From contig CAZIEY010000002.1 in NCBI GenBank assembly GCA_964538855.1, positions 153,007 through 217,006 of the forward strand: a stretch of DNA of 64,000 bases. The letters run 5' to 3'. The stretch is from an uncultured Candidatus Saccharibacteria bacterium (GTDB lineage Bacteria > Patescibacteriota > Minisyncoccia > Phycocordibacterales > JAACPR01). This document shows positions 12,169-63,553 of this stretch, piece by piece. Within the stretch, counting starts at the first letter, position 1. The number at the start of each line of letters is the position of its first letter. Both the position numbers and the translations under genes were made by a program. The notes below the pieces were generated by a model. It ran no database searches. It saw nothing but the letters and a program-made list of their open reading frames with translations, and had not been told where the DNA came from.

Positions 12169-12171
12169 ATT

Positions 12172-13272: not shown

Positions 13273-13275
13273 CCA

Positions 13276-14403: not shown

Positions 14404-14404
14404 C

Positions 14405-15757
14405 ATGAACATGCTCGATATTTTCAAAAGTAAAAAAGTTGTAGTCAGATTTCCGCCATCACCGACCGGATATCTTCATGTTGGACGGGCTCGAACCATG
14501 CTTTTTAATTACCTTTTTGCTAAACAGCATGGAGGTAAAATTATTTTTCGGCTCGAAGATACCGACAAGGCGCGTTCAAAAGACGAATACGTACAAGATA
14601 TTATCGAGGGTTTAAAGTGGCTTGGAATTTCATATGACGAAGGCCCTTTCAAGCAATCTGAAAGAACTGAAATCTACAAAAAATATCTCCACAAAATGGT
14701 TGCGGATGGACGAGCCTACATTTCCCACGAACCGGAAGGTGAAAATAAAGAGGTTGTCCGTTTTAAAAATCCAAACAAAAAAGTGACTTTCACGGACTTG
14801 ATTAGAGGTGATATTACTATCGATACTACTGATCTTGGAGACTTTGTTATTGCACGTAACATCGACGATCCGCTGTACCACCTCACGGTAGTGGTGGATG
14901 ATTTTGAAATGGGAATCACACATATCATTCGAGGAGATGATGGTATTGCTAATACTCCAAGACAAATCCTCATTCAGGAAGCAATTGATGCGCCACGGCC
15001 TCTGTACGCGCACTTACCACTCATTCTCGCTGCCGACAAGTCAAAATTGTCAGGTCGTAAAGGTGCGGTGTCTGTTCGAGATTTTCGTGAAAAGGGATAC
15101 TTACCAGAAGCCTTCGTAAACTTCCTCGCACTGATCGGATGGAATCCTGGCACAGAGCAAGAAATTTTCAGCATGGATGAACTCATCAAAGATTTCGACA
15201 TCACAAAAATCTCAAAAGGTGGGGGAGTCTTCAACGAAGAAAAATTACAGTGGTTCAACCGCGAATATATTCGAAAGGTCAGCGACAAGATTTTTGTAGA
15301 AGAGGTCAAGAAGCGGCTCACACAATATAATCCGAGCGACGAAACTATTCTACGTCTCAAACACGTATTAATCGAACGCATGAGCGTATTCGACGATATC
15401 GCAACAATGGTTGCCGCAGGAGAGATTGAATATTATTTCCAAAAACCTTCCGATTTTCCAATTCACAACATCATCTGGAAAAAAAGTGATGCGACGACAA
15501 CACTGAAGCACCTCAAAAATGCGCTGGAAAAAATCTCAACCTTACCGGATCAATTTTCTGAAGAAACTGCTAAAAAGGCTTTGTGGGCATACGCCGAAGA
15601 ACACGGCAAAGGGGACGTTTTGTGGCCAATTCGATACTCACTTTCTGGCAAGGATCGTTCACCTGACCCATTTTCACTCATGGCTATTTTAGGAAAGAAA
15701 GAGACGATGGAACGCATCGAGTTTACTTATAAAAAATTGAATGAAACACAATCTTAA
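14405..15757 (+). CDS. gltX: Glutamyl-tRNA synthetase
   Basis: Start at MNMLDIF (ORF 14321.. overlaps murG); PSPTGYLHVG HIGH region, KLSGRKG KMSKS-variant. Confidence 0.85.
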   Translation: MNMLDIFKSKKVVVRFPPSPTGYLHVGRARTMLFNYLFAKQHGGKIIFRLEDTDKARSKDEYVQDIIEGLKWLGISYDEGPFKQSERTEIYKKYLHKMVADGRAYISHEPEGENKEVVRFKNPNKKVTFTDLIRGDITIDTTDLGDFVIARNIDDPLYHLTVVVDDFEMGITHIIRGDDGIANTPRQILIQEAIDAPRPLYAHLPLILAADKSKLSGRKGAVSVRDFREKGYLPEAFVNFLALIGWNPGTEQEIFSMDELIKDFDITKISKGGGVFNEEKLQWFNREYIRKVSDKIFVEEVKKRLTQYNPSDETILRLKHVLIERMSVFDDIATMVAAGEIEYYFQKPSDFPIHNIIWKKSDATTTLKHLKNALEKISTLPDQFSEETAKKALWAYAEEHGKGDVLWPIRYSLSGKDRSPDPFSLMAILGKKETMERIEFTYKKLNETQS

Positions 15758-17072
15758 GATTATTATTACTATTCTAAGTCTGGCTTTCGCGGTGATTTTT
15801 TGTGTCTCAGCATTCTATCCACAGAACGCATTCGCTCTCAACGAAGAAGAAGAGGCGGAACTTACATCAGAAATTAACTCGAAACGAGAGCAAATCGAAA
15901 AGTTAGACAAGGAAATTTCCGCACACCGAAACGCACTCAATTCAGCGAGTGGACGTGCATCAAATCTCCAAGGAACGATCAAGACACTCGAGGCAACAAA
16001 ATTAAAATTGCAGACTGATATCAAAAAAACACAAACCGAGATGGAGAAAACCGATCTCACCATCAAAAAACTCGGACTCGATATAATCGAAAAAGAATAT
16101 CTTCTTAAAAAAAATCGTGACGGGTTGTCCGAATCAGTACGTCGCGTCAACGAAATTGAATCCGTATCTACTATCGACAGATTTCTCGGGTATACCACAT
16201 TGTCTGAATTTTGGAGTGATTTTGAATTGACGGAAAAATTGCAAAAGCAGTTACACACCGAAGTTGAAACACTTAACAGGCTAACAAATGAATTAAAGGC
16301 TGCCGAACTCAACCAACGAAACGAGAAGAATAATTTAGTAGAGCAAGAAAAACAATTGTCCGGTCAAACAGTTGCGGTTCAATACACGCAAAATGAAAAA
16401 GCAACGCTCCTCGCTCAAACTAAAAACGAAGAATCAAATTACCAAAAACTTCTCGCGCAAAAATTAGCTGAAAAAAAAGCCGCCGAAGCCGAGATTTACG
16501 AAATTGAATCAAAGCTACATTACACAATTGATCCAAATGCATATCTTACACCTCGTCATGGCATTTTGGATTGGCCGGTCGCAGGTTTTCGCTTGACCCA
16601 ATATTTCGGCAACACTGGCTTTGCACGCAGTAATCCACAATTTTATTCAACAGGATTTCACAACGGAGTTGATCTCGCGGTACCACTTGGGACCGCAATT
16701 AAAGCACCGGCAGATGGGGTAGTAAAAGGATTTGGTAATACAGACTTATATCCAGGCTGTCGTTCGTGGGGAGGTTGGCTCATGATCAGTCATCCGACAG
16801 GTCTTTCAACCCTCTATGGTCACCTTTCATCTACAATCGTCAGTGTTGGTCAGCAAGTCAAAAAGGGTCAGGTGGTCGCATATAGTGGTAGTACAGGTAT
16901 CAGTACCGGTCCACATCTTCACTTTGGTACTTATATTTCTCAAGCCGTTGAAATTAAAAATTATAGGGAAGTCGCACCTTCATCAAAAGGTTGTGGTGCT
17001 TATAACGTAAACATCCCAATGGCATCTCACGAAGCATATCTAGACCCGTTAACATATCTTCCTGCCTTATAA
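15741..17072 (+). CDS. M23 (LytM) peptidoglycan endopeptidase with long N-terminal coiled coil (EnvC-like)
   Basis: Signal peptide; heptad-rich region; HNGVDLAVPLGT...D and HLHFG zinc-binding motifs. Confidence 0.8.
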   Translation: MKHNLKIIITILSLAFAVIFCVSAFYPQNAFALNEEEEAELTSEINSKREQIEKLDKEISAHRNALNSASGRASNLQGTIKTLEATKLKLQTDIKKTQTEMEKTDLTIKKLGLDIIEKEYLLKKNRDGLSESVRRVNEIESVSTIDRFLGYTTLSEFWSDFELTEKLQKQLHTEVETLNRLTNELKAAELNQRNEKNNLVEQEKQLSGQTVAVQYTQNEKATLLAQTKNEESNYQKLLAQKLAEKKAAEAEIYEIESKLHYTIDPNAYLTPRHGILDWPVAGFRLTQYFGNTGFARSNPQFYSTGFHNGVDLAVPLGTAIKAPADGVVKGFGNTDLYPGCRSWGGWLMISHPTGLSTLYGHLSSTIVSVGQQVKKGQVVAYSGSTGISTGPHLHFGTYISQAVEIKNYREVAPSSKGCGAYNVNIPMASHEAYLDPLTYLPAL

Positions 17073-17073
17073 A

Positions 17074-18120
17074 ATGTCGAAGTCAACATTCATCATTCGA
17101 AAATTATCCGATTCGGAACCTTGTGATGATTTTCTAATTAAGCATAATGCACCTTTTACACAATCGCTCATGTACGCTACATGGCATAGGAATTTAGGTC
17201 GAACTATTCATCGCTATACAATTGAAATTACTGGTAGCCCTGTGAAACAAATTGGCTATGTACAATTTGTTGAAGCTCCATTATTTTTTGGAAAAAAATA
17301 TGCATACGCGTCGTATGGTCCGATAATCGATCCAAAATATTTCACCGAAGTTCTACCTTTCATCAAATCCGAATTTACAAAAATCACGCAGGGAATTGGG
17401 GCAGCTTTTTTTCGACTAGACTTTACCCCAACTTTATCAGACGCAACCACCCTTCTCTGTAAAAAAACTTTTTTCAAATCCCCTCGCAAAACCTACAAAG
17501 GTGCTCATTTTCAAAACCGCGAAGAATGGTTCATGGACATACGACCAAACGAATCTGAGCTCTATAACAGTATTCATTCTAAACATCGATATTGCTTTCG
17601 TTCTGCTGAAAAAAAGAATTGCCAAGTTGCCATAATCACGGACCATTTCATGGATCATTTTGATACTTTCTGTGCATTAATGAAAGAAACCGCGTCTCGC
17701 AATTCATTCTATTTGCATTCCGAAGACTATTACCGCAGTATCTTTACAAGCCTCGAAACAAGCAAAAGTGGCTATTTAGTAACCACCACCGTGGATGGAA
17801 TCATTACAAACATCATGCTATTCGTTTATTATGGTCGCACAGTTATGTATGTATTCAGCGGCTCGATTAAAGATCAAAAAAATATTCCGTCCGGACATCT
17901 CGCACTATGGCACAGTATTAGACATGCAAAATCTCTCGGGCTCGAGCAATTTAATTTTGGCGGACTTTCAACAAAAGAATTTCCAGACCCATCAATGACG
18001 AACTTAACCCAGTTCAAAATGCGATTTGGAGGTCATCTAGTACGTCATTCAGACTTCTACGACTTGATTATCAATCCGTTTGTGTATGGATTATTTGTCT
18101 TGCGCAAGCTTTTTAGATGA
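17074..18120 (+). CDS. FemAB-family aminoacyl-tRNA-dependent peptidoglycan branch transferase (putative)
   Basis: 348 aa, tandem GNAT-like FemAB/FemX architecture, cell-wall gene neighbourhood; motif-level match only. Confidence 0.5.
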   Translation: MSKSTFIIRKLSDSEPCDDFLIKHNAPFTQSLMYATWHRNLGRTIHRYTIEITGSPVKQIGYVQFVEAPLFFGKKYAYASYGPIIDPKYFTEVLPFIKSEFTKITQGIGAAFFRLDFTPTLSDATTLLCKKTFFKSPRKTYKGAHFQNREEWFMDIRPNESELYNSIHSKHRYCFRSAEKKNCQVAIITDHFMDHFDTFCALMKETASRNSFYLHSEDYYRSIFTSLETSKSGYLVTTTVDGIITNIMLFVYYGRTVMYVFSGSIKDQKNIPSGHLALWHSIRHAKSLGLEQFNFGGLSTKEFPDPSMTNLTQFKMRFGGHLVRHSDFYDLIINPFVYGLFVLRKLFR

Positions 18121-44196: not shown

Positions 44197-45279
44197 TTAA
44201 ATCTGTCTAAGCGCCGGTCGATACCCAGTCGCATCGCCGTTTTTGTTAAATCCGTACGTACCTAAAACTCCGTCGAAATCTGTCAGAGTGTGAAGGTAAT
44301 TTTGTATCGTCTCCGAATCTATGCTTTTTGTATCGTCAATAGCTCGCTTTAATACATAGACCGAATCATATGTAACAGAAACTGCAAAATCAAAAGTGGG
44401 CTGACCAAATCGTTCCTTGTAAGTTGAAAATATTTTTTCTTTTTTACTAGTATTAGGGATTTCAGGATCTGCCGGATATGTCATACCCTTTGCGAAAGGA
44501 ATATTCCGTATTTCTGGTATGCTGCCCACATAATTCCCGTAGATCGCCCCTTTATATTTTCTTTGTTCAAGTTGATTCAAAATAGCTATTGCACTCCCCG
44601 ATTCGTTTGCATTTATAAATATAGCTTGCGGATTGTGACTCATTATCTTTTGCACCTGTGTCCGCACATCTGTCGAATGTGGCAAAGCATCCTCGCTGTA
44701 CAGAGTGCCCGTATAATGTTTTTTAAAAGCCTCTTTCATTCCTGCAGAATAATCCCCGAGTTCAGTAATAATACCTACGGATGTATATTTTGTATTCATA
44801 TCTTCGGCAATAATCTGCGCCGAGTCTTCATCAGAGTGTGAATTACGAAAAACATATTCACTCATGCCAGATATCTGAGGATTTGTAGACCATACTGCAA
44901 TGAGATTTATTTTGGCACGATCGGCAATCTCTCCTGCTGCCAAAGTTTCTGCCGAGCAAGACGACATAAGGAAATTTACACGATCAATAGAGATAAGTTT
45001 TTGCGCCGCAATCGAAGCTGTTTTCGCATCACATTTTCCGTCTTCGTAAATTACTTCCAGTCGTTTACCCAGAGTATCCCCTGCGGAATTAATTTCTTCA
45101 ATCGCTAATTCCATAGCATGCTTCTCTTCAATTCCCCATGATGCACCGAAACCCGTAAGTGGGGCGATAAAACCAATTTTAATTGATTCATTATTTGTGG
45201 TTTTAGAACTGTTAATACCAACTGCTGCGGCAATAGTAATAATTGCTACAAAAACCCATATTTTGTGGTTTATTTTCAT
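44197..45279 (-). CDS. ABC transporter substrate-binding protein, LivJ/Leu-Ile-Val-binding family (orphan)
   Basis: Signal/TM anchor, type I periplasmic-binding fold length and motifs (IGFIAPLTG...); no adjacent permease/ATPase. Confidence 0.75.
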   Translation of the reverse strand: MKINHKIWVFVAIITIAAAVGINSSKTTNNESIKIGFIAPLTGFGASWGIEEKHAMELAIEEINSAGDTLGKRLEVIYEDGKCDAKTASIAAQKLISIDRVNFLMSSCSAETLAAGEIADRAKINLIAVWSTNPQISGMSEYVFRNSHSDEDSAQIIAEDMNTKYTSVGIITELGDYSAGMKEAFKKHYTGTLYSEDALPHSTDVRTQVQKIMSHNPQAIFINANESGSAIAILNQLEQRKYKGAIYGNYVGSIPEIRNIPFAKGMTYPADPEIPNTSKKEKIFSTYKERFGQPTFDFAVSVTYDSVYVLKRAIDDTKSIDSETIQNYLHTLTDFDGVLGTYGFNKNGDATGYRPALRQI

Positions 45280-52468: not shown

Positions 52469-53587
52469 CTAAATACTCACAAACAATCCATTCTCCACCT
52501 TTCGAATCTGATATTCACGTTGCGCTTGGCAGTCTGTATCAAAACTCTTGGCTTTTCCGGTGATGAGTGGGTAATCAGTAAGGTTCGATATATAGTTTCC
52601 GACTTCTTGAGGAGATTCTCCGACGACTTTTATTGCATCGAGGGCAAGTTTTACACCATCATAATACGCTGCTGTCGGAAGACTTGGATGTGTGCCGAAT
52701 TGTTCGAGGTAAGCCTGCTTGTATGCTTTCACACTCGGTGTATCACTATTGCTTGGTTCAGATTGATAGTTCCAGTCTACAAATACAATTCCATTCGCAA
52801 GCTTCTTGTCCTGGAGTACAGGATTCTGGATAGTATTATAGTCACTGTAAATTGGTTTATTCCAACCAAGATTAGAAATTTGTTGAAGCATAGTTTGGGC
52901 AGTATTTGCAGCATTTACCGTGATCAAGGCTCCAGTTGTACTCATAACTGTCTTTAATTTTGTGATGTTAGTCCTGAAATCTGAAGTTGCCGCGTCGAAT
53001 GGTTCCGAAGCAGTGACAGTTCCACCTAGTGCAACATACACCTTGGTAAATTCATCTGATATTCCTTTACCGAATTCATTATTCGGCATGAGAAGCGCAG
53101 TTGTTTTAATATTTGAATTAATCAATTGCTGAGCAAGCGCAGGGCCGATATCTTTTGCGGTCATAGTTGTACGACATGACAACGTATTATTATCTATGAA
53201 CGCTGGGGTTGTTGCTCCTGAAGAAATAATAAAGTTACCATCAGTGATTGCAACGGGACGCACCGCAGCTGCTACAGGACTGTATTCAACAACAAAGAAT
53301 TTCACACCTCTAGTTTTAAGTGCTTGATATGCATCAAGACCTTTTTTCGCATCGGAAGCGGTATCTTCGATCAGTAGTTCTACTGGCTGACCATTAATAC
53401 CGCCAGCATCATTTATATTCTTTACCGCAAGTTCAGCACTTTGTTTCTGAAATTCACCGTATGCCGCAAGAGGACCAGTGAGCGTGTAAAGAGCTCCAAT
53501 CTTGAGTGGTGTTTCGGAAGTGTTGTTCTTCCATCCCATGACGAAAATGACGATAATAACGACTACTACAAGAAGGTATTTTTTCAT
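52469..53587 (-). CDS. ABC transporter substrate-binding protein, LivJ family (orphan)
   Basis: Third paralogous SBP. Confidence 0.75.
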   Translation of the reverse strand: MKKYLLVVVVIIVIFVMGWKNNTSETPLKIGALYTLTGPLAAYGEFQKQSAELAVKNINDAGGINGQPVELLIEDTASDAKKGLDAYQALKTRGVKFFVVEYSPVAAAVRPVAITDGNFIISSGATTPAFIDNNTLSCRTTMTAKDIGPALAQQLINSNIKTTALLMPNNEFGKGISDEFTKVYVALGGTVTASEPFDAATSDFRTNITKLKTVMSTTGALITVNAANTAQTMLQQISNLGWNKPIYSDYNTIQNPVLQDKKLANGIVFVDWNYQSEPSNSDTPSVKAYKQAYLEQFGTHPSLPTAAYYDGVKLALDAIKVVGESPQEVGNYISNLTDYPLITGKAKSFDTDCQAQREYQIRKVENGLFVSI

Positions 53588-55013: not shown

Positions 55014-56114
55014 TTATTCTACCATTACATAGGAACCGCCCCGAATCTGGCGAAGTTCTGTATCTTGAAAAGATTGCTGACCGTACTCATTAAATTTTAT
55101 TACGTTTGAATAACCAACATAATTATCGACAGAATTTAGATAATTTTTGATATCTTCTCCATTTTTAGCTCCAGATTTTATTGCATCAATAACAAGCATA
55201 GTCATATCATAAGATGTTGCAGCACTAATTGCTGATGGTAAAGTTCCGAAACGCTTCAAATATTTATCGTTGAATTCTGATGTTTTTACGTACACCTTGT
55301 CGGCTGGATAATATATTCCATCTCCAATGCTTGCTCCTGCCTGATTAGACAACAATGATTGAATGGAGCCAACTGGCATGAAGATTGGTAAGTTAATTCC
55401 GAGTTCTTTTGTTTGTCTCGCAAAAACCTCTGGCTTACTGCCACCTGATATAACAGCGTAGATAACATCAGCGTCGCTATTTTTTAATTTAAGCAATTCT
55501 GTTCGATAATCAGAAATTCCCTCGTTTGTCTTTGATTCAAAAACAATACTAAGGTCTTTATAATTATCTTTTACTTCCTGCTTGACGACCGCCGCCAAAT
55601 TATCTGACCAAGAGCTCACGTTCGAATAGAGAGCAACTTTTTTATGTCCAGATTTAACCATGTAATCCAAGACCTCTTTAACTTGAAATCTTTCGCTGGC
55701 TGTTGCTGAAAAATAATATGGTAATTTAGACCACTCGAATTCGCTTGCCATCCAAGGAGAAATGACTGGAACATTCGCGGTATTTCCAATAGGTGCGGCA
55801 ACTTCACCCCACTCTGCCCATTCTGGACCAATAATTACGTCCACACCGTCTACGTTGATCAATTTTCTAGTCGCAGTAACTGTTTTAGAAATATCTGACT
55901 GAGTATCTTCCAAAACATAATCAACATCTAGACCGGAATCCTCTATCGCCATGATAAAACCATTACGAGAAGATTCTCCAGCAAATGACACAAATCCAGT
56001 TTGACCAAACAATCCACCAATTTTTATCGTGTTATTTGTTTCAGTGGGCTTGTTCAAAGATACTGCCAAAATGATTATCGCAATTACTACTACTGGCCAA
56101 ATTATTTTTTTCAT
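55014..56114 (-). CDS. ABC transporter substrate-binding protein, LivJ family (orphan)
   Basis: Fourth paralogous SBP. Confidence 0.75.
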   Translation of the reverse strand: MKKIIWPVVVIAIIILAVSLNKPTETNNTIKIGGLFGQTGFVSFAGESSRNGFIMAIEDSGLDVDYVLEDTQSDISKTVTATRKLINVDGVDVIIGPEWAEWGEVAAPIGNTANVPVISPWMASEFEWSKLPYYFSATASERFQVKEVLDYMVKSGHKKVALYSNVSSWSDNLAAVVKQEVKDNYKDLSIVFESKTNEGISDYRTELLKLKNSDADVIYAVISGGSKPEVFARQTKELGINLPIFMPVGSIQSLLSNQAGASIGDGIYYPADKVYVKTSEFNDKYLKRFGTLPSAISAATSYDMTMLVIDAIKSGAKNGEDIKNYLNSVDNYVGYSNVIKFNEYGQQSFQDTELRQIRGGSYVMVE

Positions 56115-56199
56115 ATAGAAATGATTGTATCAAAATAGGGACTAAATACAATGTGAGCCTAGTCGAGATGCGACCCAAAGGTTCATTGACCCACAAGGC

Positions 56200-56394
56200 T
56201 TATTTAGGCTCTTTCTGACCTTCTGGTCGACCCTTCTCGAGAGTAGCTTTCTCTGCATACAAATGAGGATTTTGTTTCCTATCTTGATCCAGTAACCATT
56301 GAAATACTGCGACCACTCTGTCACTTTCTTCTTTAGTCCAGTTTCTAAGATTTTTCTTGTTTTCTTGATTCATAAAAAGTGACAAAAGTGACAT
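56200..56394 (-). CDS. Small hypothetical protein (64 aa) at distal end of LexA-led operon
   Basis: ORF begins with tandem gtcactttt repeat; WTKEESDRVVAVFQWLLDQ. Confidence 0.3.
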   Translation of the reverse strand: MSLLSLFMNQENKKNLRNWTKEESDRVVAVFQWLLDQDRKQNPHLYAEKATLEKGRPEGQKEPK

Positions 56395-56416
56395 TCGTAC
56401 ACTTTTTCCATATTAG

Positions 56417-57112
56417 CTATAAGTCTAAACCATATTTTTTAATCGCCTCTCGAAAACTCCTTGCCACCAAAATCAAATCGGGGTGACACTTGTTAATCAT
56501 ACGGTCACTACCACAAAAACATTTTCTCCCGTCAAATTGACCGTTCATTACGGATTCAACCAAATTCCATTGTTTACTTACTTTTAGTCGCTTAAGACAA
56601 GCAAGAACTTGTGGTTCTTTACTATCACTATTCTTGAACGATTGCAGAATGCCGACTACATCGTGGTCATACGCAAGCCAAGGCCATTTTTTGTACTCAT
56701 CAAAATAAGATTGGGCATATAAAAATGGTATCACTAAACGTTCAAAGTATTCGAGAAAACTATAGCCTCGTGTAAAAATATCATCCTCTTCAGAAGGACC
56801 CGCTAAACACGCTCGTCCATCTCCAGTGTCAAAAAAATGACGTTTCGGTATCCACTTGTTTTTATCTGTATAAACCCAGCATTTAGGCATTCTACGACTC
56901 TCACTATTTTTAGTGATTTTTATCTTGTATTCCCCACTAATAACCAGACCCTCGTAATCGATGTTTGGGTCCATGAAAGCAGTAAACATATTTGTGACTT
57001 TATCGTAGACAGAAGTAAACCGGACAGTACCTTCAATAGTGTCCTCACCCTCATTTATTTTTAAATCAGGTAAAGTTTCAGCGAGCCATTGAATTTCGAT
57101 TTTAGTTATCAT
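56417..57112 (-). CDS. Unrecognised Cys-rich protein (~230 aa) encoded immediately downstream of the candidate CD-NTase; possible novel CBASS accessory/effector
   Basis: Start at MITKIEIQ; Cys pairs RACLAG and KCFCGSDRMINKCHPD; overlaps the NTase gene stop by ~10 nt. Confidence 0.45.
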   Translation of the reverse strand: MITKIEIQWLAETLPDLKINEGEDTIEGTVRFTSVYDKVTNMFTAFMDPNIDYEGLVISGEYKIKITKNSESRRMPKCWVYTDKNKWIPKRHFFDTGDGRACLAGPSEEDDIFTRGYSFLEYFERLVIPFLYAQSYFDEYKKWPWLAYDHDVVGILQSFKNSDSKEPQVLACLKRLKVSKQWNLVESVMNGQFDGRKCFCGSDRMINKCHPDLILVARSFREAIKKYGLDL

Positions 57113-58019
57113 TATTATAAGACCATTGGCGTGGTGGTGTATATGAACCACCGATTGTATACCCGGCAGTTACCGCACTCGCACTCTTACTATTTCCTGA
57201 ATTGTTCTGTTTAATATTACTTTCAAATAGTACTTTCCAAGATTCTATCTCATTTGAATCTTGTATAGTTTTAAGAACCATTTTCGCTGCTTGAGAAATG
57301 TTTCTTTTTTCAGAATCATCAACAAGTTGAGAAACGATATTATTCGTGTTGGCAGGGTCTATAATTCGCGATGACGCAAAGTTATCACGAAAAGCTTCAA
57401 GCACCTTAATGAATCCCTTCTCGAGATCGCCCTTATTCTGATAACCCGAAAGAGTTTGCACAACAAACAATTCGAGAATAAAGGTCTTTATCTTGATGTT
57501 ATTTCGATGTGCCCAAAGTTTAATCAGACGAATAATCGACACACATCCACTATCGACAATATGATCGATATGTATTTTAAGATTGGTCTGCATTCTCTCC
57601 TTGTCTCCTTGTGCGACATGAAGAAATACATCCTTAGTGTCTGTGATAAAGCGTCCCGGTACAACATCAATATGGAAATCACCTGGTGCATCAGCACCCT
57701 TTAGATCGAGAATTCTTTCTGCCGAAGCCTTGTGCGTAAGGAGGTACTTCTTAGAAAGTCGAGTTGCTACGTCTTCACGGATTTCTTTCAATGACCGTTC
57801 GTCAGAACTTGGAAAGTAACAGACGATATCAAGATCGTATCGATCACAAATCATTGTGCCTTTCTCTCTAGATCCTGCATATTTTATAACAGGATCATCA
57901 CCGAATTCTTCACGGAGAAAAGCGGTTACTTCGTTCTTATGGGACTGCAAAGCTTCCTCCTGTTTTTCAGACAGATCTTGTGAAGCGAGCAGGTTTTCTA
58001 GGTATTTGCTTGGTGTCAT
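57102..58019 (-). CDS. Pol-beta-superfamily nucleotidyltransferase of SMODS/CD-NTase type (candidate cyclic-oligonucleotide synthase)
   Basis: YAGSREKGTMICDRYDLDIVCYF = G-S-x11-DhDh; third acidic residue in HIDVVPG; 305 aa; translationally coupled to HNH-fusion gene. Confidence 0.55.
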   Translation of the reverse strand: MTPSKYLENLLASQDLSEKQEEALQSHKNEVTAFLREEFGDDPVIKYAGSREKGTMICDRYDLDIVCYFPSSDERSLKEIREDVATRLSKKYLLTHKASAERILDLKGADAPGDFHIDVVPGRFITDTKDVFLHVAQGDKERMQTNLKIHIDHIVDSGCVSIIRLIKLWAHRNNIKIKTFILELFVVQTLSGYQNKGDLEKGFIKVLEAFRDNFASSRIIDPANTNNIVSQLVDDSEKRNISQAAKMVLKTIQDSNEIESWKVLFESNIKQNNSGNSKSASAVTAGYTIGGSYTPPRQWSYNNDN

Positions 58020-58023
58020 AAAT

Positions 58024-59199
58024 TTAATTAATAGTTAATGCTAACTCGTACCCTTCTCTGATTCGATCGTATACATGCAACTGCGGACTAACATCTTTTA
58101 GTAGTTCTCGTCCGCAAACTATCGCAACTGGGGCAGGTATTGCAGCGAAAAGATGAAGTTCACTCTTTGTTCCATGCTCCACTTCGATTGAACGCAAGAT
58201 ACTTTGGTACTTTCTTTGGAATGTATGAAGACTCTCTCTTGCTGTTATGAGCGACCGATTCGGATCTTTGCCTAATGGCGTAATTTCGTAGATAGTAAAC
58301 TCATCGTTTATATGTTCAGGTAGTTGATCCAAGACAATCTTGCTACTCAACGAGAGAAGTAAGGCGATCTTTTTCTGATTACTACCTTTCTGAATGCATT
58401 GCGATTCGAACTGTACAGATTCTTCTTTGCGCCATCGCCATCCCGCAGGATTATCTCTGTGATGTTGGTAAAAATCTGCAGCAATCTTATCCCCCAACGC
58501 ATTACCTAGATGAATGAGTATGGGTATCCTTGCAAGTGAAAATACTGATATGTGTCCAATATGTCCACTTTCTATCGCAGGAACTACCTGACGATTCACA
58601 ATTTCGTTCACTTTAGCTATAGCCATCTTCCAAAAATCAGTGTTTACTTCTTGCGGTAGAGACTGAAGATCTATCTCAATTGCCCGCTCGTCCCCCAAGT
58701 AGCGAGGATATCTACCAGTATCAAGCACTGCGGTTCGTATCTCTTCGTTTGAGATTGAAACACTATCCCCTCGAATATTACCCATGATCCGAAGCACTAC
58801 CGTCTCATGCTCAACACCAAGACTTGTAAGGTACTTAATACGAGCTTCGTGCTCGTTCTTGTATCTCATTAGAAGCTCTTTTGGATATTCATCAACTTTA
58901 TCAATCACAGCATGACATTTTGTGCAAAGAAGCATAAGGTTTGAAGCTTTATTTCGTTCTGTGATCGGGAGAGGATCGTCGCCTCGTGGACCTCCTTTTG
59001 ATCGAGCGACTATGTGTGCGATATTCGAGAGTTTTACCTCTTGAGTCGTAAGAGCATCTTCCAATAAATAGGTATTACACCCATGGAATTCACACCTACC
59101 TCCTGCATGCGTCCACAACTCAAATACAACAGGATCAGTACCACTGATACTCGGTGCTTTAGATAAATTTCGACTTTTCTTTGCACGCTTTCTGGACAT
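58024..59199 (-). CDS. HNH endonuclease fused to ~250-aa C-terminal domain (Cap5-like HNH-SAVED effector, putative)
   Basis: CEFHGC...AHIVARSKGGPRGDDP...NLMLLCTKCH = HNH bba-Me motif; size (391 aa) and domain order match Cap5; SAVED assignment is inference. Confidence 0.5.
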   Translation of the reverse strand: MSRKRAKKSRNLSKAPSISGTDPVVFELWTHAGGRCEFHGCNTYLLEDALTTQEVKLSNIAHIVARSKGGPRGDDPLPITERNKASNLMLLCTKCHAVIDKVDEYPKELLMRYKNEHEARIKYLTSLGVEHETVVLRIMGNIRGDSVSISNEEIRTAVLDTGRYPRYLGDERAIEIDLQSLPQEVNTDFWKMAIAKVNEIVNRQVVPAIESGHIGHISVFSLARIPILIHLGNALGDKIAADFYQHHRDNPAGWRWRKEESVQFESQCIQKGSNQKKIALLLSLSSKIVLDQLPEHINDEFTIYEITPLGKDPNRSLITARESLHTFQRKYQSILRSIEVEHGTKSELHLFAAIPAPVAIVCGRELLKDVSPQLHVYDRIREGYELALTIN

Positions 59200-59201
59200 A
59201 A

Positions 59202-59411
59202 TTATTTTTTCTTCCTGTTATATGGGGATTGATTTGTTGGCCGTAAACTAATACCGAGTTCCGACGCCTTATTTCGAACTCCACCCACAGGTCTACCAAG
59301 TTTAAAGCCAATCACACGAGTCGGTGTATTATCTTTCGATAATGATTTGAGTTGTTTCACCTCGTTAGGTGTCCACTCTTTTCCAGCATTCCTAATGTAT
59401 TTTTGTACCAT
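59202..59411 (-). CDS. Small GcrA-N-terminal-like DNA-binding domain protein
   Basis: WTPNEVKQLKSLSKDNTPTRVIGFKLGRPVGGVRNKASELGI parallels GcrA WTDERVELLKKLW.EGLSASQIAAELGGVSRNAVIGKVHRLGL. Confidence 0.3.
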   Translation of the reverse strand: MVQKYIRNAGKEWTPNEVKQLKSLSKDNTPTRVIGFKLGRPVGGVRNKASELGISLRPTNQSPYNRKKK

Positions 59412-59418
59412 AATTTTA

Positions 59419-60066
59419 TTAATTAACGTTTTTAATAATTCCTACAACCTTACCACTCAACCTAAAATCGTCACCTTCATGAATAAATATTGGAAGATAT
59501 TTATGAGTTGAGTCAGCCTCCAATACAATGATTTTATTTTTAGGTTCAAACTTATACCGCTTAATGGTCGCCAATCCATCAATAACAGCCACGACGATGT
59601 CTCCATTTTTGTAGTTTTTATACTCACTGTCGACTAGTATAAAATCCCCGCTTTCAATTACTTTACCAGGTTCAACTTCTGCAAGATTCATACTGTCACC
59701 GTCAGCAATCAACGCATATAGATCTTTCTTGTTTCGTGGTAAAATAGATGTAGAAACTTTAAGATATTGTTCAACATTAGGCTCTGCAAAGATTGAAGCA
59801 GGACCACAATTTGCAGACCCTACTACAGGGAGAGAGTAAATGGGGCTTGTTGATGCTTTTGCATATCCCCTTTTAACCAATCTGATGATTTTCTCATCCA
59901 AATTCATTTGGATTAAGCCGTCTTTTTCAAGTTGCTGTAAATGATATTTGGCTGTCTGCGGCTTATCTTTTGCACCGATCATTTCAGCAATTTTTCTAAG
60001 ACTATACGATCCGAAATCATCGTGCGTTGCTATAAGGTCTAAAATTTGTTGTTGTATCCTGTGCAT
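59419..60066 (-). CDS. lexA: LexA repressor (wHTH + S24 autopeptidase)
   Basis: N-terminal LexA DNA-binding fold (QQILDLIATHDD...KYHLQQLEKDGLI), cleavage-site region, ADGDSM Ser motif, catalytic Lys in ATIKRY. Confidence 0.8.
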   Translation of the reverse strand: MHRIQQQILDLIATHDDFGSYSLRKIAEMIGAKDKPQTAKYHLQQLEKDGLIQMNLDEKIIRLVKRGYAKASTSPIYSLPVVGSANCGPASIFAEPNVEQYLKVSTSILPRNKKDLYALIADGDSMNLAEVEPGKVIESGDFILVDSEYKNYKNGDIVVAVIDGLATIKRYKFEPKNKIIVLEADSTHKYLPIFIHEGDDFRLSGKVVGIIKNVN

Positions 60067-60145
60067 ATTTAAAGTATAGCATATTTCAGAGTAAAATGCA
60101 ACTAATAATTTGACATTTTACACCCGCTTTTGATATTATTACATC
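60067..60145. promoter_or_regulatory. Divergent promoter region: minus-strand ttgcat-N17-tatact ending 6 nt before lexA ATG (leaderless?), plus-strand ttgaca-N18-tattat, and inverted repeat gtaaaatg-N17-cattttac
   Basis: Read directly. Confidence 0.35.
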
Positions 60146-60505
60146 ATGGAGATTCAGATCCAAAATTCAAAAGCATCCTCTCTCAATTTTCCAAAAAGAA
60201 AGTCGAGAAATAAATGCGAAGAGAAATGGAATGACTCCGAAAATCAGAAAATATTTCTAGACGAACAAGAGTTCTATATAGACGAGTCTGGTATTGATGT
60301 AATTGCAAAATTTAAACTACCACCCTATCTCAAAGAAAAGATAGTGCGAGGAGAAGTTAATATCAACGGAACATTTTTCCCAGAAGAAACAAATCGTGAA
60401 CTAGAAGATTTGCTCGATACGCAAGAAAAGCTTTTGCTAAATGGTAAAACAGCACAACAAGTAGATTTCGACAAATTACTGGAAACAGGACTCTTGAGAT
60501 TATAG
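60146..60505 (+). CDS. Hypothetical acidic protein (119 aa)
   Basis: ORF only. Confidence 0.4.
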   Translation: MEIQIQNSKASSLNFPKRKSRNKCEEKWNDSENQKIFLDEQEFYIDESGIDVIAKFKLPPYLKEKIVRGEVNINGTFFPEETNRELEDLLDTQEKLLLNGKTAQQVDFDKLLETGLLRL

Positions 60506-60655
60506 AAATAATGGAATTAGTGCCGCTTAAATAAAATTAACCCGCCTGATTTCATACAGAAAGCCTAAGTACATCATTTTTGGTGTATTAAGTCTTCGTA
60601 TGAAGTTCGGCTTTTTGTTTTATCTGTTTTTATTATTTAACTAATATAAAACATA

Positions 60656-61939
60656 ATGAAAAAACTAGTTTGGAGCACAGTTCAAAAGAAAGTAGATGAC
60701 CTTATTCCCCAAAAGATAAACCCTCGTATTATCAATGACAAACAAATGTCAGATCTTAAGAGAAGTTTACAAAAGTATAACTTGGTGGAAATACCTGCAG
60801 TTGATCTCAACGGAAAAATTCTTGCGGGACACCAGCGCATCAAAGCACTGAAGATATTAGGTCGTGGTGATGAATTAATAGATGTAAGGGTCCCCAACCG
60901 CAAACTTACTGAAAAAGAATCGAATGAATACCTGATAGCATCCAACAAACTCGGCGGTGACTGGGATTTTGAAGCACTCAAATCTTTCGATCTTGATGCG
61001 CTTGAATTTGCAGGATTTGATGAGGTTGAAATCGGCAAATTCATGGATGATGACAAGGAAGTGATAGAAGAAGATTTTGATGTAGAAAAAGAATTGAAGA
61101 AGATAAAGAAACCAATAACAAAGCTTGGTGATATTATCACGCTTGGGAAACATCGAATCTTGTGCGGAGATTCTACACGCAAAGAAAATCTTACAAAACT
61201 ATTCGGGAAAGAAAAAGCATCAATGATATATTCAGATCCAGTGTATAACATAGATATCAATTACGACGGAGGTATTAGTGGCAACAAAGACTACGGCGGA
61301 AATGTAAACGACACAAGAACTTTTGATGAATACAAAAAATTCTTGAAAGATAGTATGGAAGCAGGACTTGCGGTATCCAATAAAGATATTCACACCTTCT
61401 ATTGGTGTGATCAAGTATATATAGGCGTGGTGCAGGATCTATATAGATCCCTCGGTATTGTAAACAAGCGGGTATGCTTATGGATAAAGAACAACCAAAA
61501 TCCAGTCCCTAGTGTTGCATTCAACAAAGTTTACGAACCCTCAGTATATGGTGTCCGAGGAAAACCGTATCTAGCAAATATCAACAATCTTAATGAAGTG
61601 CTCAATAAGGAATTAAGTACTGGTAACAACTTGTTTGATGAGATTAATGATATCTGGATGACGAAAAGACTATCAGCACAGGATTACACGCATGCAACTT
61701 CAAAACCCTACCAACTACACGAGAAAGCAATAAAACGCTGCACTAAACCAAACGACCTCATCCTCGATAGTTTTCTCGGATCGGGCAGTACTCTCATTGC
61801 AGCCGAAACTCTAGGTCGAAGAGTATATGGGTGTGAATTAGAACCTCAATTCTGCGATCTCATTATACGAAGATATGAAAAGCTAACTGGTAAAAAAGCC
61901 GCAATCAAACACCATGAAGAAAAACAAAGTTCAGAATAA
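60656..61939 (+). CDS. ParB-like nuclease domain fused to beta-class N6A/N4C DNA methyltransferase
   Basis: N-terminal ParB/Srx fold with AGHQRIKAL; motif IV SDPVYN (DPPY-type) precedes motif I DSFLGSGST; typical phage/plasmid orphan MTase layout. Confidence 0.75.
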   Translation: MKKLVWSTVQKKVDDLIPQKINPRIINDKQMSDLKRSLQKYNLVEIPAVDLNGKILAGHQRIKALKILGRGDELIDVRVPNRKLTEKESNEYLIASNKLGGDWDFEALKSFDLDALEFAGFDEVEIGKFMDDDKEVIEEDFDVEKELKKIKKPITKLGDIITLGKHRILCGDSTRKENLTKLFGKEKASMIYSDPVYNIDINYDGGISGNKDYGGNVNDTRTFDEYKKFLKDSMEAGLAVSNKDIHTFYWCDQVYIGVVQDLYRSLGIVNKRVCLWIKNNQNPVPSVAFNKVYEPSVYGVRGKPYLANINNLNEVLNKELSTGNNLFDEINDIWMTKRLSAQDYTHATSKPYQLHEKAIKRCTKPNDLILDSFLGSGSTLIAAETLGRRVYGCELEPQFCDLIIRRYEKLTGKKAAIKHHEEKQSSE

Positions 61940-62345
61940 ATTCCTTGATGAATTGGAAAAAACACCGATTATCCAGTATGCATGTGAAAAATGCGGAATA
62001 TCAAGAAATACATACTACCGATGGATTAAAGAAGATAGTTTTTTCAGGTTACAAGTAGACGACCGCATAAGTCTTGGTGTTGATAGAATAAATGATTTCG
62101 CCGAAAATAATATCCTTTCTGGTATTAAACGAGGTGATTTCAGATCAACTATATATTGGCTTAGTCATAGGAATAGAAACTATGTAAAGCCATTGAAAGT
62201 TATTATGCACCCAGACGACTCGGATACCCAGAGAATTCGATTGGAATTTGCAAAACGGAGAGCAAAAGAAATGCAGGAGCGGTGGTTTAGACATAAACCA
62301 AATCAAGAGATCAGTGATCCAAATCACCCACTTGACCCCAAATGA
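61914..62345 (+). CDS. HTH protein, phage terminase-small-subunit-like (putative)
   Basis: ACEKCGISRNTYYRWIKED helix-turn-helix; overlaps MTase gene end. Confidence 0.3.
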   Translation: MKKNKVQNKFLDELEKTPIIQYACEKCGISRNTYYRWIKEDSFFRLQVDDRISLGVDRINDFAENNILSGIKRGDFRSTIYWLSHRNRNYVKPLKVIMHPDDSDTQRIRLEFAKRRAKEMQERWFRHKPNQEISDPNHPLDPK

Positions 62346-62381
62346 TGCGCTATATCCTATTCAGACAATATAGATGTAGTT

Positions 62382-62546
62382 TTAGTCTTTTGCGACTGCC
62401 CATACAAGTGCCACGATCCATCCAATGACCGTCCAACCAGCTGTGATATTTAACACTAGTATTGCTTCTGAATTCTTCTTGTGACGAGAATAACCAATAA
62501 TTGACGGCAACATGTACCCAATCAGCATCCCGAAAAATAATTCCAT
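62382..62546 (-). CDS. Superinfection-immunity-like mini membrane protein (54 aa)
   Basis: MELFFGMLIGYMLPSIIGYSRHKKNSEAILVLNITAGWTVIGWIVALVWAVAKD; LN..AGWT.IGW..ALVWA pattern of prophage Imm/superinfection-immunity family. Confidence 0.4.
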   Translation of the reverse strand: MELFFGMLIGYMLPSIIGYSRHKKNSEAILVLNITAGWTVIGWIVALVWAVAKD

Positions 62547-62650
62547 AATTTTATTTAGAGACTTAATATTTATAATGTAAGTAATTTATGATTATCTTAA
62601 TCTCAAGATAGGTAAAATAAAAACCATCTTTAATGCGAGATGAGTCGTAC

Positions 62651-63220
62651 TTACCTTTGTTCAACAGTACCGTCTGTATAAACCAGAGTCTCGACTTCCC
62701 ATTCGTAATTCATCTTTGCTAAATCAATATTTCTGAGTTCTATATCACTGTCGATAAATTGATTGTATTCAAGATATACTGAATACAACTTAACTTCTGA
62801 AATTTTTAATCCATCATCATAAGAAATACCAATTGACTTGATATGATCACCGAATAAATCTTGGATACGAATAGTTCCCTTAACCCCGTCCAATTCCTTA
62901 CCAGAATTATTAGTAAGTTCAAGCGACATACTAATTGAATCTTGATAGTCTCCGTCCGTAAAACCTTTTTTTAAAATCTTAAGATCTACTTTTTTTGATA
63001 AGTCAGTAGTATTACTTACCTCAGGTGCACTCCGTTCTTCTGAATTATTAGTTTGCACATCAGACTGCGTATTAATCACATCGGAAAACGTATCTCGAAT
63101 GGCTTTCTGCAATTGATATGTTTTATATTCCATACCCGCCCAAAACACCAACGCCAATAGTATACACACCGGAATAATCCACTCACGTTTACTTTGTAAA
63201 AATATTTTTAATTTTTCCAT
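62651..63220 (-). CDS. Hypothetical membrane-anchored protein (189 aa)
   Basis: N-terminal TM; preceded by attenuator-like leader. Confidence 0.45.
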   Translation of the reverse strand: MEKLKIFLQSKREWIIPVCILLALVFWAGMEYKTYQLQKAIRDTFSDVINTQSDVQTNNSEERSAPEVSNTTDLSKKVDLKILKKGFTDGDYQDSISMSLELTNNSGKELDGVKGTIRIQDLFGDHIKSIGISYDDGLKISEVKLYSVYLEYNQFIDSDIELRNIDLAKMNYEWEVETLVYTDGTVEQR

Positions 63221-63225
63221 GAAAT

Positions 63226-63364
63226 GTTCGTCGCGATTTATTTTATAAATTCCTAAAGATGAGACACAAAAATCCCATCACTAGGAAGACCCGAAGGTCT
63301 CTACACCAGTTTCCCGATGTAACGCGACGAACGCCCTAATGATGGGGTTTTTAAGTTCGTCGCG
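63226..63364 (-). promoter_or_regulatory. Attenuator/riboswitch-like leader with mutually exclusive helices: X1/X2 (cgcgacgaac, two copies) vs Y (gttcgtcgcg), and a 17-bp terminator helix enclosing a UUCG-capped hairpin
   Basis: Plus-strand: gttcgtcgcg 63226-35 and 63355-64; inverse cgcgacgaac 63323-32; terminator arms 63268-85 / 63334-52 with T-runs both sides; gaccUUCGggtc inner hairpin (minus-strand sense). Confidence 0.4.
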
Positions 63365-63553
63365 ATTTTGACCATATCCTTTGAAATTTCAAAGGGGTTA
63401 GGTCCAATTAATATGTAATTGTCAGGATTAAATGATACAACAAAAGCATCGTTTAATCCAGTTTAGATTATATCGCTGAACACTCTCTTTGCTAAGACTT
63501 GGTGACGACCACACTACGCTTTTCCGTGTTTGCATAGATATATTAAAAAATGT

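Follow-up and report, generated by a model that had tools for sequence, protein, structure and literature searches.

The closest described relatives of the defence system reported here are the E2-type cyclic oligonucleotide-based antiphage signalling systems (E2-CBASS), namely SmCdnG-SmE2-Cap5 of Serratia marcescens and the CdnG-Cap5 pairs of Asticcacaulis and Lactococcus. Among the regulators of such systems, the WYL protein CapW is reportedly a DNA-damage-responsive regulator of CBASS and other immune operons. In E2-CBASS the E2 protein becomes covalently linked to the C-terminus of the cyclase (PMC12948482), and the Cap5 effector of Asticcacaulis (Protein Data Bank, PDB, entry 7RWK) is activated by 3',2'-cyclic GMP-AMP (3',2'-cGAMP; PMC8568899). 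DNA damage raises immune-operon expression through CapH/CapP (a helix-turn-helix, HTH, protein with a metallopeptidase) and through CapK/CapS, a kinase paired with a repressor (bioRxiv 10.1101/2022.04.27.489752; PMC13373217), and DUF2188 proteins adjoin the regulator in CapH/CapP-associated operons (bioRxiv 10.1101/2022.04.27.489752). Here we analysed a window of 64,000 nucleotides (nt) from an uncultured Candidatus Saccharibacteria bacterium (contig CAZIEY010000002.1), in which five minus-strand genes (60066 to 56417), whose open reading frames (ORFs) were confirmed, join a LexA-family repressor to a CBASS. Patescibacteria (the candidate phyla radiation, CPR), to which this organism belongs, are known for genomes of very small size and tend to be regarded as poorly armed against phages. 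Our reading is that the region from about 56153 to 63430 is a recombinase-less copy of a family of small integrative islands widespread in Patescibacteria, in which the repressor leads an operon carrying an exchangeable defence cassette, and we put the probability of this joint reading at about three in four.

In content, the cargo of the operon amounts to a full type II-short (E2-only) CBASS of an ordinary, known type, with the gene order effector-cyclase-E2 and part identities taken from hidden Markov model (HMM) searches, PDB sequence matches and a fold search. The original prediction had proposed, from the letters of the DNA, that the third gene encodes a Cap5 (HNH-SAVED) effector, and this was borne out by matches to Pfam SAVED (PF18145, 9e-36, residues 201-390), NCBIfam SAVED (1e-36), the PADLOC CBASS endonuclease effector model PDLC00746 (5e-118) and SAVED_HNH (1.8e-109), and by alignment to Cap5 of Asticcacaulis (AsCap5, 7RWK; 4.5e-48 over a 354-residue alignment, residues 28-381) and of Lactococcus (LlCap5, 7rwm; 2e-24). 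HNH_2 matched weakly (0.0035), and the HNH motif that had been read in this protein was found in place (C36..C41, H62, N87, C92-x-x-C95-H96). The same was true of the nucleotidyltransferase motif of the fourth protein (G49-S50, 11 residues, D62-L-D64-I, with D118 in HIDVV), and its proposed identity as a CD-NTase (nucleotidyltransferase of the cGAS/DncV kind) was upheld by the SMODS model (27.7 bits, barely over the gathering score of 26.5) and by PADLOC PDLC00803 (3.8e-70) together with 15 further cyclase models. These two results also ruled out an MNT or minimal nucleotidyltransferase identity. On the two points that had been named as decisive at the sequence level, the C-terminal domain of the effector is SAVED and the nucleotidyltransferase is a CD-NTase, not an MNT type.

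The NCBIfam CBASS cyclase models (CBASS_cyclase_a/b) remained far below their cut-off (54.7 vs 200), and the best PDB match, SmCdnG (8hsb, 3.2e-6), covered the N-terminal 130 residues only. As these matches are so distant, and as SMODS lay barely over its score, we rate the 305-amino-acid (aa) protein, as judged from its sequence, a divergent and short CD-NTase without clade assignment. The product of the last gene, listed in the original prediction as an unknown Cys-rich protein, proved to be the E2 that defines type II-short CBASS, with the E2 fold and matches to seven PADLOC CBASS E2 models (best 1.5e-23); no match to it was obtained in Pfam, NCBIfam or PDB sequence searches, and Foldseek failed to detect its E2 identity. 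In an alignment of 16 E2 sequences the invariant features were Cys102 in an A-C motif, W143-P-W145, H150 and C198-x-C200...C209-H210, of which Cys102 is the candidate active-site cysteine and the C-terminal C198-x-C200...C209-H210 group looks like a zinc knuckle. The E2 stands alone with its catalytic-type cysteine, an E1 domain and a JAB gene being absent from the cassette. The cyclase ends in a tail of the form G290-G291-S-x-T-P-x3-W (family form G-[GN]-[ST]-x-T-P-x3-W), which is retained in partners of this E2 family even where the cores of the cyclases are very divergent; such conservation fits the covalent E2-cyclase linkage described in PMC12948482, and by analogy the Gly-Gly motif is a likely candidate for E2 recognition or conjugation.

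Comparison with other copies of the cassette (related loci are numbered with the prefix L) showed that its parts do not always travel together. The cyclase of L010 (12041-13631) is 73% identical to that of the window and its E2 only 36%, and in L040 (8016-9696) and L042 (8010-9693) the E2s are 56-63% identical with very divergent cyclase cores in which the tail motif is kept. Modules are shuffled within the CBASS cassette.

The gene at the head of the operon had been called lexA. Its product is indeed LexA-family over its full length, aligning end to end with E. coli LexA (7b5g, 6.6e-11), but it scored 89.7 bits against the NCBIfam lexA equivalog TIGR00498, below the cut-off of 110.95, and for this reason we label it LexA-family rather than LexA. 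Pfam returned Peptidase_S24 (7.2e-20) and a sub-threshold LexA_DNA_bind (17.5 bits vs a cut-off of 23.7); a winged helix-turn-helix (wHTH) and the peptidase were the only domains found, and PADLOC matches were weak and confined to the HTH. In domains and arrangement the protein does not correspond to CapW, CapH-CapP or CapK-CapS. In the alignment to LexA, Cys87-Gly88 falls on A84-G85, Ser125 (in GDSM) on S119 and Lys169 (in TIKRY) on K156, and these are the predicted cleavage site, nucleophile and general base respectively. An alignment of 31 rows, 29 of them orthologous, shows all three without variation among the orthologues; the L042 repressor, a non-orthologous row, departs from them in the cleavage-site motif. 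UmuD, too, is cleaved at a Cys-Gly pair.

Behind the repressor lies a gene for a 69-aa protein, which had been described as GcrA-like. This identity was rejected, as the protein has no Pfam match at E<=0.1; PADLOC likewise returned no match, phrog_323 ('transcriptional regulator') matched at 1.8e-9, and the Myb-like PDB entry 2llk matched weakly (E=0.41). Orthologues occupy the equivalent position in L010 (72% identity) and L015 (90%), a 69-aa gene also stands there in L042-L044, and in 16 loci a DUF2188 protein takes the small-gene position.

Reading the junctions off the sequence, the predicted packing of the five genes with gaps of 2-7 nt holds for the first three (repressor/69-aa gene 7 nt, 69-aa/391-aa 2 nt, 391-aa/305-aa 4 nt), but the last is an 11-nt overlap (ATGATAACTAA), given a start of the last gene at ATG 57112. 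The longest ORF of that gene runs from a GTG (56417-57151); ATG 57112 is the likeliest start, giving 231 aa, and is supported by a 231-aa database protein (P0121) that is 100% identical. A repressor-first, tightly packed layout was found in more than 30 independent loci, so that it is no chance juxtaposition, and the arrangement that had been thought unusual is instead the usual build of an island that is widespread in Patescibacteria and carries many defence cargoes.

The genome scan yielded 32 species-level loci, all from metagenome-assembled genomes of Patescibacteria/Paceibacterota type, and the best 120 of 769 repressor homologues were 75-91% identical to the window repressor. The scaffold of the islands was determined by ORF clustering, precomputed Pfam contexts and Pfam scans. 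Its order is a large serine recombinase, a LOOT RNA, a variable gene, a TerL-like gene, a TerS-like gene, a ParB-N/N6_N4 methyltransferase and a gene of about 137 aa, with the repressor, the small gene and the cargo on the opposite, divergent arm. The ParB-methyltransferase is present in about 21 of the 32 species-level loci and the recombinase in about 15; in cluster totals, which include redundant loci and the window, they number 26 (divergent from the repressor) and 20. A TerS-like gene was found in 16 loci and the gene of about 137 aa in 17; behind the TerS-like gene there is usually a TerL-like one (14 loci; Terminase_6C 2.1e-5).

The LOOT RNA was detected in the islands L001 (3054-3182), L004 (5466-5589), L010 (7554-7677), L012 (5103-5220) and L037 (7090-7208), with scores, the window included, of 77.7-88.2 bits. 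Where the island is complete, this RNA has the serine recombinase gene on one side and a second variable slot on the other, and is always about 150-170 nt upstream of the recombinase gene and divergent from it, and roughly 5-65 nt upstream of the variable gene on its own strand (65 nt before the 189-aa gene in the window). No functional description of the LOOT RNA was found in open-access papers.

Several of these islands have moved. L001 is 96.3% identical to L002 and 99.5% identical to L003 over 8.95 kb, with sharp ends and unrelated sequence beyond them, and the island end of L001 directly adjoins the start codon of tsaD; for L045, L046 and L048, which have three different downstream flanks, identity is 99.8-99.97% across 7.1-7.2 kb. 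Since these near-identical blocks of 7-9 kb in unrelated flanks include the repressor gene, the repressor moves with the island. Copper-resistance genes (a CsoR-type repressor, a P-type ATPase with HMA, DsbD_2 and a cupredoxin) flank the recombinase end in several genomes (L001 1-1507, L002 1-1528, L004 289-4005 and the upstream region of L015), with no nucleotide similarity between the flanks; such genes may mark a neighbourhood favoured for integration or belong to a composite island of larger size.

When IMG/VR was scanned with the repressor and the ParB-methyltransferase, no relatives were returned. A scan with the TerL-like protein returned two uncultivated viral genomes (UViGs), which are island-like (repressor, methyltransferase, TerS/TerL, recombinase and defence genes) and in which no capsid genes were recognised. 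On the strength of these scans and the two UViGs a complete prophage was rejected, and in the islands examined no replication or capsid genes were recognised. Judged on gene content, the islands may be phage satellites.

The mobility of the repressor bears on a different reading of the locus, namely that its leading gene is the SOS master regulator LexA of the host and that the CBASS set sits in a chromosomal lexA operon as an SOS-induced nuclease. Both domains of the protein are LexA-like and, as described above, it aligns with E. coli LexA over its full length; homologues carry the JGI annotation 'repressor LexA', no second lexA is visible within the 64-kb window, homologues at 57-61% identity lie in conserved chromosomal synteny without island genes, and GTGTAAA repeats upstream of these distant homologues are shared with the island copies. 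We nevertheless regard a host LexA as unlikely, as its close relatives lie inside 7-9 kb blocks that are 96-99.97% identical between unrelated flanks, and as its score falls below the equivalog cut-off; on these two grounds the role of host SOS master regulator, implied by the original lexA label, cannot be assumed. It is further opposed by the palindrome TGTAAAA-N3-TTTTACA, present upstream of the distant homologues, which is not enriched in the window (15 matches vs 12.0 expected), and by a conserved 14-mer with no exact match in the window other than the one at the island promoter. The window ORFs that were sampled included no repair genes. In L042 (5920-6594), L043 (2329-3009) and L044 (239-919), a non-orthologous S24 repressor bearing a canonical LexA_DNA_bind domain heads the same scaffold and Cap5-cyclase-E2 cargo. 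The architecture therefore survives replacement of its regulator, which also speaks against a host lexA operon.

The position behind the repressor and the small gene was found to hold many kinds of cargo, called with PADLOC and Pfam on cluster representatives, and CBASS of three architectures was found in it. Besides the Cap5, CD-NTase and E2 set (window, L010, L039-L044), for which all contexts of the E2 family examined (56-63% identity) lie in this scaffold, the slot holds a CD-NTase with Cap15 (L001-L003, L008, L021), a CD-NTase with a 166-aa protein without family assignment (L030), and a metallo-beta-lactamase with E1-E2 (3e-147) and JAB (4e-49) proteins (L029). Thoeris ThsB (2e-74) with a Macro-type ThsA (3e-38) occupies it in L016, L017, L020 and L024, a ThsB-cluster gene with a 212-aa gene without assignment in L022, and other ThsB-like sets in L014, L015 (by ORF-cluster membership only), L026, L045-L050 and L051. 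A putative TIR-like protein, recognised by motif only and without a PADLOC match, is paired with a caspase-like protease (1e-20) in L009, L012, L018 and L028. Further loci carry two Pycsar cyclases (8e-67 and 7e-56; L037), Shedu SduA_C (L004, L005), PDC-S56 (3e-213; L025), PDC-S54 (L023), PDC-M48B (L019), a KAP/QatA-like NTPase (L032), or an NgoPII restriction enzyme with a C5 methylase (L033).

Some proteins in the slot had no PADLOC match (L014, 175 aa, 11324-11851; L012, 217 aa, 12268-13448; L023, 282 aa; L031, 306 aa), and the 214-aa protein of L023 (region 929-2423) matched only the candidate model PDC-S54. Other candidates by position are a 167-aa protein in L012, the 124/208/211-aa set of L031 (10903-13566) and the proteins that follow SduA_C in L004 (10564-12089). 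By their position, slot proteins without family assignment are candidate new defence components.

The spacing of these cassettes is as tight as in the window (13/2/5, 1/1/7, 1/12/-11 and 5/1/8/-11 nt for differing cargo), and this bears on whether repressor and cargo are coupled at all. Were the position an insertion hotspot in which cassettes bring their own promoters, the repressor would control only the excision and packaging genes. Defence hotspots of other mobile elements are often made of independent transcription units, and promoter-like hexamer pairs do occur within the window operon at 57143->57114 (10/12, just before the E2 start) and 59633->59605 (9/12). Such pairs are no commoner in the region than in shuffled sequence (16 matches vs 15.3 expected), and gaps of 1-13 nt or overlaps were found at every junction of every cargo type examined. 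The operon strand showed nothing resembling a terminator, and a different S24 repressor holds the same head position in L042-L044, all of which renders an uncoupled arrangement quite unlikely.

Coupling would be brought about in the divergent control region between the repressor and the 119-aa gene. On the minus strand, a -35 element TTGCAT (60101-60096), a 17-nt spacer and TGc-TATACT (60081-60073) are followed six nt on by the repressor ATG at 60066; on the plus strand, TTGACA (60110-60115), an 18-nt spacer and TATTAT (60134-60139), scoring 11/12, are followed six nt on by ATG 60146. Both divergent mRNAs are predicted to lack a leader. In 34 of 35 loci the repressor ATG is preceded, at a distance of 5-8 nt, by the end of a -10-like hexamer, which has TGn in 29 of them. 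A conserved block, GTGTAAAATGTCAAAT (60123-60108), is common to 32 loci in the region upstream of the repressor; it overlaps the divergent promoter's -35 and sits at about -57 to -42 from the predicted repressor start site, upstream of the -35/-10 of the repressor promoter. An inverted repeat is formed by GTAAAATG (60121-60114) and CATTTTAC (60098-60091); in the window and in four distinct islands, the latter arm overlaps the repressor promoter at its -35 and spacer. The conserved block and the repeat arms are candidate operators. As a universal operator, GTAAAATG-N15-CATTTTAC was rejected, the exact repeat being present in only 5 of 38 loci.

This anatomy admits two modes of control. The SOS control of the nuclease that was originally predicted fits the promoter anatomy, but it is only one of the two: DNA damage may induce the operon in the style of LexA, which would parallel CapW, CapH/CapP and CapK/CapS, or the island may behave like lambda cI-rexAB, in which case the repressor would block the divergent operon while its own promoter is left on or is activated, and damage would lower CBASS transcription or leave it as it is. 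The second mode is suggested by the position of the best-conserved block, over the divergent -35 and upstream of the -35/-10 of the repressor, by the predicted leaderless repressor mRNA, which resembles that of lambda cI from PRM, and by rexAB itself, a precedent for defence genes co-transcribed with a prophage repressor. Against it, the arm CATTTTAC over the repressor -35 and spacer fits negative autoregulation of the LexA kind, and no LexA-family protein is known to act as an activator. We hold the cI-rexAB-like mode to be a credible but less favoured possibility.

Taken together, these features suggest the following model of an island whose repressor leads the defence operon. The backbone would be a divergent switch, with an operon of a small gene (119 aa in the window), the ParB-methyltransferase and TerS-like/TerL-like genes on one side and the repressor arm on the other, and the repressor's own promoter would drive the small accessory gene and whichever defence cassette sits behind it. 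In the window, the repressor, small protein, Cap5, cyclase and E2 would be made from one leaderless mRNA; since a quiet island requires production of the repressor, expression of the CBASS genes would accompany it. The E2 may prime or conjugate the CD-NTase through the C-terminal G290/G291, and upon phage infection the CD-NTase would make a cyclic oligonucleotide, for which 3',2'-cGAMP is a guess from the nearest Cap5. Binding of the signal by SAVED would cause Cap5 to oligomerise and its HNH domain to degrade DNA, aborting the infection. Upon DNA damage, RecA-stimulated cleavage at Cys87-Gly88 would be expected to alter CBASS expression, and in complete islands cleavage of the repressor would switch on the divergent operon.

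Several findings weigh against this model. The cyclase is short (305 aa vs the 407 aa of SmCdnG) and the E2 long (231 aa vs the 18 kDa of SmE2), and with these differences in size the mechanism is transferred from the Serratia system by analogy. With promoter-like matches at the shuffled level, internal promoters within coding sequence are possible. The exact inverted repeat is found in so few loci that the operator is placed only tentatively, and, with the recombinase and TerL lost, the window copy may be a fixed remnant with drifted regulation. Lastly, the distant LexA-like genes of L033, L036 and L038 lie in conserved synteny, with DUF1993 upstream and an HI0933-like flavoprotein and PurL downstream, and without island backbone genes, from which it follows that the repressor family may also include, or derive from, a host LexA. 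Restriction-modification genes (NgoPII 7.7e-93 and a C5 methylase) were seen directly downstream of these homologues in L033 (1486-4034), L036 (10001-12586) and L038 (10001-), and these loci may be domesticated remnants or an ancestral host locus.

The remaining features of the window island are listed with the operon in Table 1. The 119-aa protein that opens the divergent operon, the positional equivalent of the gene of about 137 aa in most related islands, has no Pfam, PHROG or NCBIfam match. The backbone ParB-methyltransferase matched N6_N4_Mtase (6.3e-30), phrog_498 (DNA methyltransferase, 1.9e-87) and phrog_620 (ParB-like, 1.3e-24), and the TerS-like protein matched phrog_24579, phrog_4102 and phrog_4044 (terminase small subunit, 1.9e-7 to 5.8e-6) and HTH_Tnp_1_2 (5.2e-5).

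Table 1. Features of the island and its control region, in window positions.
Feature	Position	Strand	Remarks
Distal end block	56153-56416	-	terminus ...CTTTGGGTCGCATCTCGACTAGGCTCAC ending 56153; host genes beyond
Small ORF in end block	56200-56394	-	64 aa
Direct repeat TGTCACTTT x2 (tandem)	56393-56376	-	in distal end block
E2-like protein	56417-57112	-	231 aa
CD-NTase / SMODS cyclase	57102-58019	-	305 aa
Cap5 effector	58024-59199	-	391 aa; HNH + SAVED
Small basic protein	59202-59411	-	69 aa; possibly Myb/SANT-like HTH
LexA-family repressor	59419-60066	-	215 aa; wHTH + S24 autopeptidase
Divergent control region	60067-60145	.	between repressor and 119-aa gene
First gene of divergent operon	60146-60505	+	119 aa; 52% identical to L007 positional counterpart
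ParB-N + N6/N4 DNA methyltransferase	60656-61939	+	427 aa; backbone gene
TerS-like HTH protein	61914-62345	+	143 aa; backbone gene
Second variable slot	62382-63220	-	two genes in window
Superinfection-immunity protein	62382-62546	-	54 aa; Imm_superinfect PF14373 8.8e-19; phrog_1039 1.7e-18
Membrane-anchored protein	62651-63220	-	189 aa; 36% identical to part of ORF at equivalent place in L013
LOOT RNA (Rfam RF03000)	63286-63404	-	77.7 bits vs gathering score 46.4

At the distal end, a 242-nt block (56152-56393) is 86-90% identical in nucleotides to the closing block of the Thoeris islands L017 (6158-6399), L020 (3573-3696) and L024 (12334-12574), the similarity stopping at one common point, whereas the repressor genes of those islands are only about 69-70% identical to that of the window. 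This difference, between islands with CBASS and with Thoeris cargo, points to mosaic exchange. The 64-aa ORF in the block varies in length, with an early stop in L017, and the constraint on the block may therefore act on DNA (an att site) or RNA instead of protein. The window end motif resembles the island end of L001. At the other end, L004 and L010 share about 76% nucleotide identity with the stretch 63261-63426, and the island ends between 63427 and 63578, before an intact host gene for a histidine phosphatase whose frame is open from 63579 up to the edge of the window. Outside the island, the window consists of ordinary chromosome (DnaK, DnaB, ribonucleotide reductase, GltX and CysS), and no compositional anomaly of the island was evident (GC content 0.36-0.40 vs about 0.40 elsewhere).

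As the recombinase and TerL are absent from it, the window copy is most likely immobilised. A stronger version of this would make it an inactive fossil, decaying since the loss of these genes and with a non-functional CBASS, for which one may cite the lack of genes that most relatives possess and the truncation of the island just past the LOOT RNA. That outcome is very unlikely, as none of the eleven island ORFs is broken, repressor, Cap5, cyclase and E2 keep every catalytic and invariant residue, and the promoter matches the family consensus; cargo that is kept while mobility genes are lost is the expected look of domestication.

In L051 (from IMG/VR; 11375-17144) the second slot holds a reverse transcriptase (RVT_1, 6e-28) with ResIII and N6_N4 methylase genes, the latter two resembling type III restriction-modification, and with the superinfection-immunity gene at this place in the window the islands may carry two defence or exclusion positions. 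The 12 kb adjoining the island encode, on the minus strand, three Peripla_BP_6 solute-binding paralogues (44197-45279, 52469-53587 and 55014-56114; about 1e-42 to 1e-45), a noteworthy number where the genome is small.

In the open-access literature neither this island nor a CBASS led by an S24 repressor was found described; LexA and S24 are unmentioned in the CapH/CapP preprint and the CapK/CapS paper, and LexA occurs once in the CapW paper (PMC9122588). Provisionally, a repressor-led swappable slot in Patescibacteria looks undescribed. A mobile element of 7-9 kb supplies Patescibacteria with at least a dozen signalling and abortive-infection systems, all behind a LexA-type repressor, and its slot offers a guilt-by-position handle for new defence genes in an uncultured phylum. 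The islands also give the orphan LOOT RNA a genomic home. A broader proposal, that these are SOS-responsive, phage-satellite-like mini-islands specific to Patescibacteria, in which the repressor promoter serves as a universal socket for abortive-infection systems, is speculative and in our view more doubtful than not. Were it true, uncharacterised slot genes would be new anti-phage systems (for example the 175-, 217- and 167-aa TIR partners, the 214+282-aa pair of L023 and the 306/124/208/211-aa set of L031), DUF2188 and the 69-aa Myb-like proteins would be generic co-regulators of the cassettes, and the LOOT RNA would be part of recombinase or second-slot control.

Compared with the Serratia E2-CBASS, the window cassette has a cyclase about a hundred residues shorter that is SmCdnG-like only in its N-terminal half (3e-6), and an E2 of 231 rather than about 160 aa with an extra C-terminal CxC...CH knuckle; it differs from known E2-CBASS also in standing within a repressor-led operon on a Patescibacteria island. 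Canonical LexA is matched in the two domains, the full-length alignment, the Ser/Lys dyad, the cleavage loop and a probable autoregulatory position, and differs in its Ala-Gly instead of Cys-Gly site; the island protein, unlike it, has a sub-cut-off score, a mobile setting and no SOS-box regulon detected in the window.

With CapW, CapH/CapP and CapK/CapS, which the S24/LexA-type module would join as a damage-linked regulator of immune operons, the islands share a dedicated repressor, its place at the head of diverse defence operons and, by prediction, damage-linked proteolytic or sensing inactivation, and with CapH/CapP also DUF2188, here behind the S24 repressor in 16 loci. CapH/CapP is encoded upstream on the opposite strand, whereas the island repressor is co-directional with the cargo operon and leads it, with repressor and peptidase in one wHTH-S24 polypeptide that presumably depends on RecA*; and in contrast to all three, the regulator here belongs to the island and not to a single defence system.

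Lambda cI-rexA-rexB is similar to the predicted island arrangement in having a self-cleaving S24 repressor, a leaderless mRNA and abortive-infection genes downstream, in a repressor unit divergent from the lytic or mobility operon. The island repressor differs from it in a LexA-type winged helix in place of HTH_3, and the islands in the absence of capsid, tail and lysis genes and in a cargo position that is systematically exchangeable among a dozen or more system types. The P2/P4 hotspots, phage-inducible chromosomal islands (PICI) and other phage satellites, and SXT share the form of a small integrative element with a fixed position for defence exchange, to which PICI add a terminase small-subunit-like gene and SXT an SOS-cleavable S24 repressor (SetR). 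Related copies of the window island show the traits of such elements: they have a serine recombinase and TerS/TerL-like genes, and their ends are sharp and their flanks differ; the window copy is without recombinase and TerL. The islands are set apart from P2/P4, PICI and SXT by their large serine recombinase, where those elements use a tyrosine integrase, by a TerS+TerL-like pair with no recognised replication or capsid genes and no known helper phage, by the LOOT RNA, by their Patescibacteria hosts, and by a cargo that appears to be wired into the repressor's own operon.

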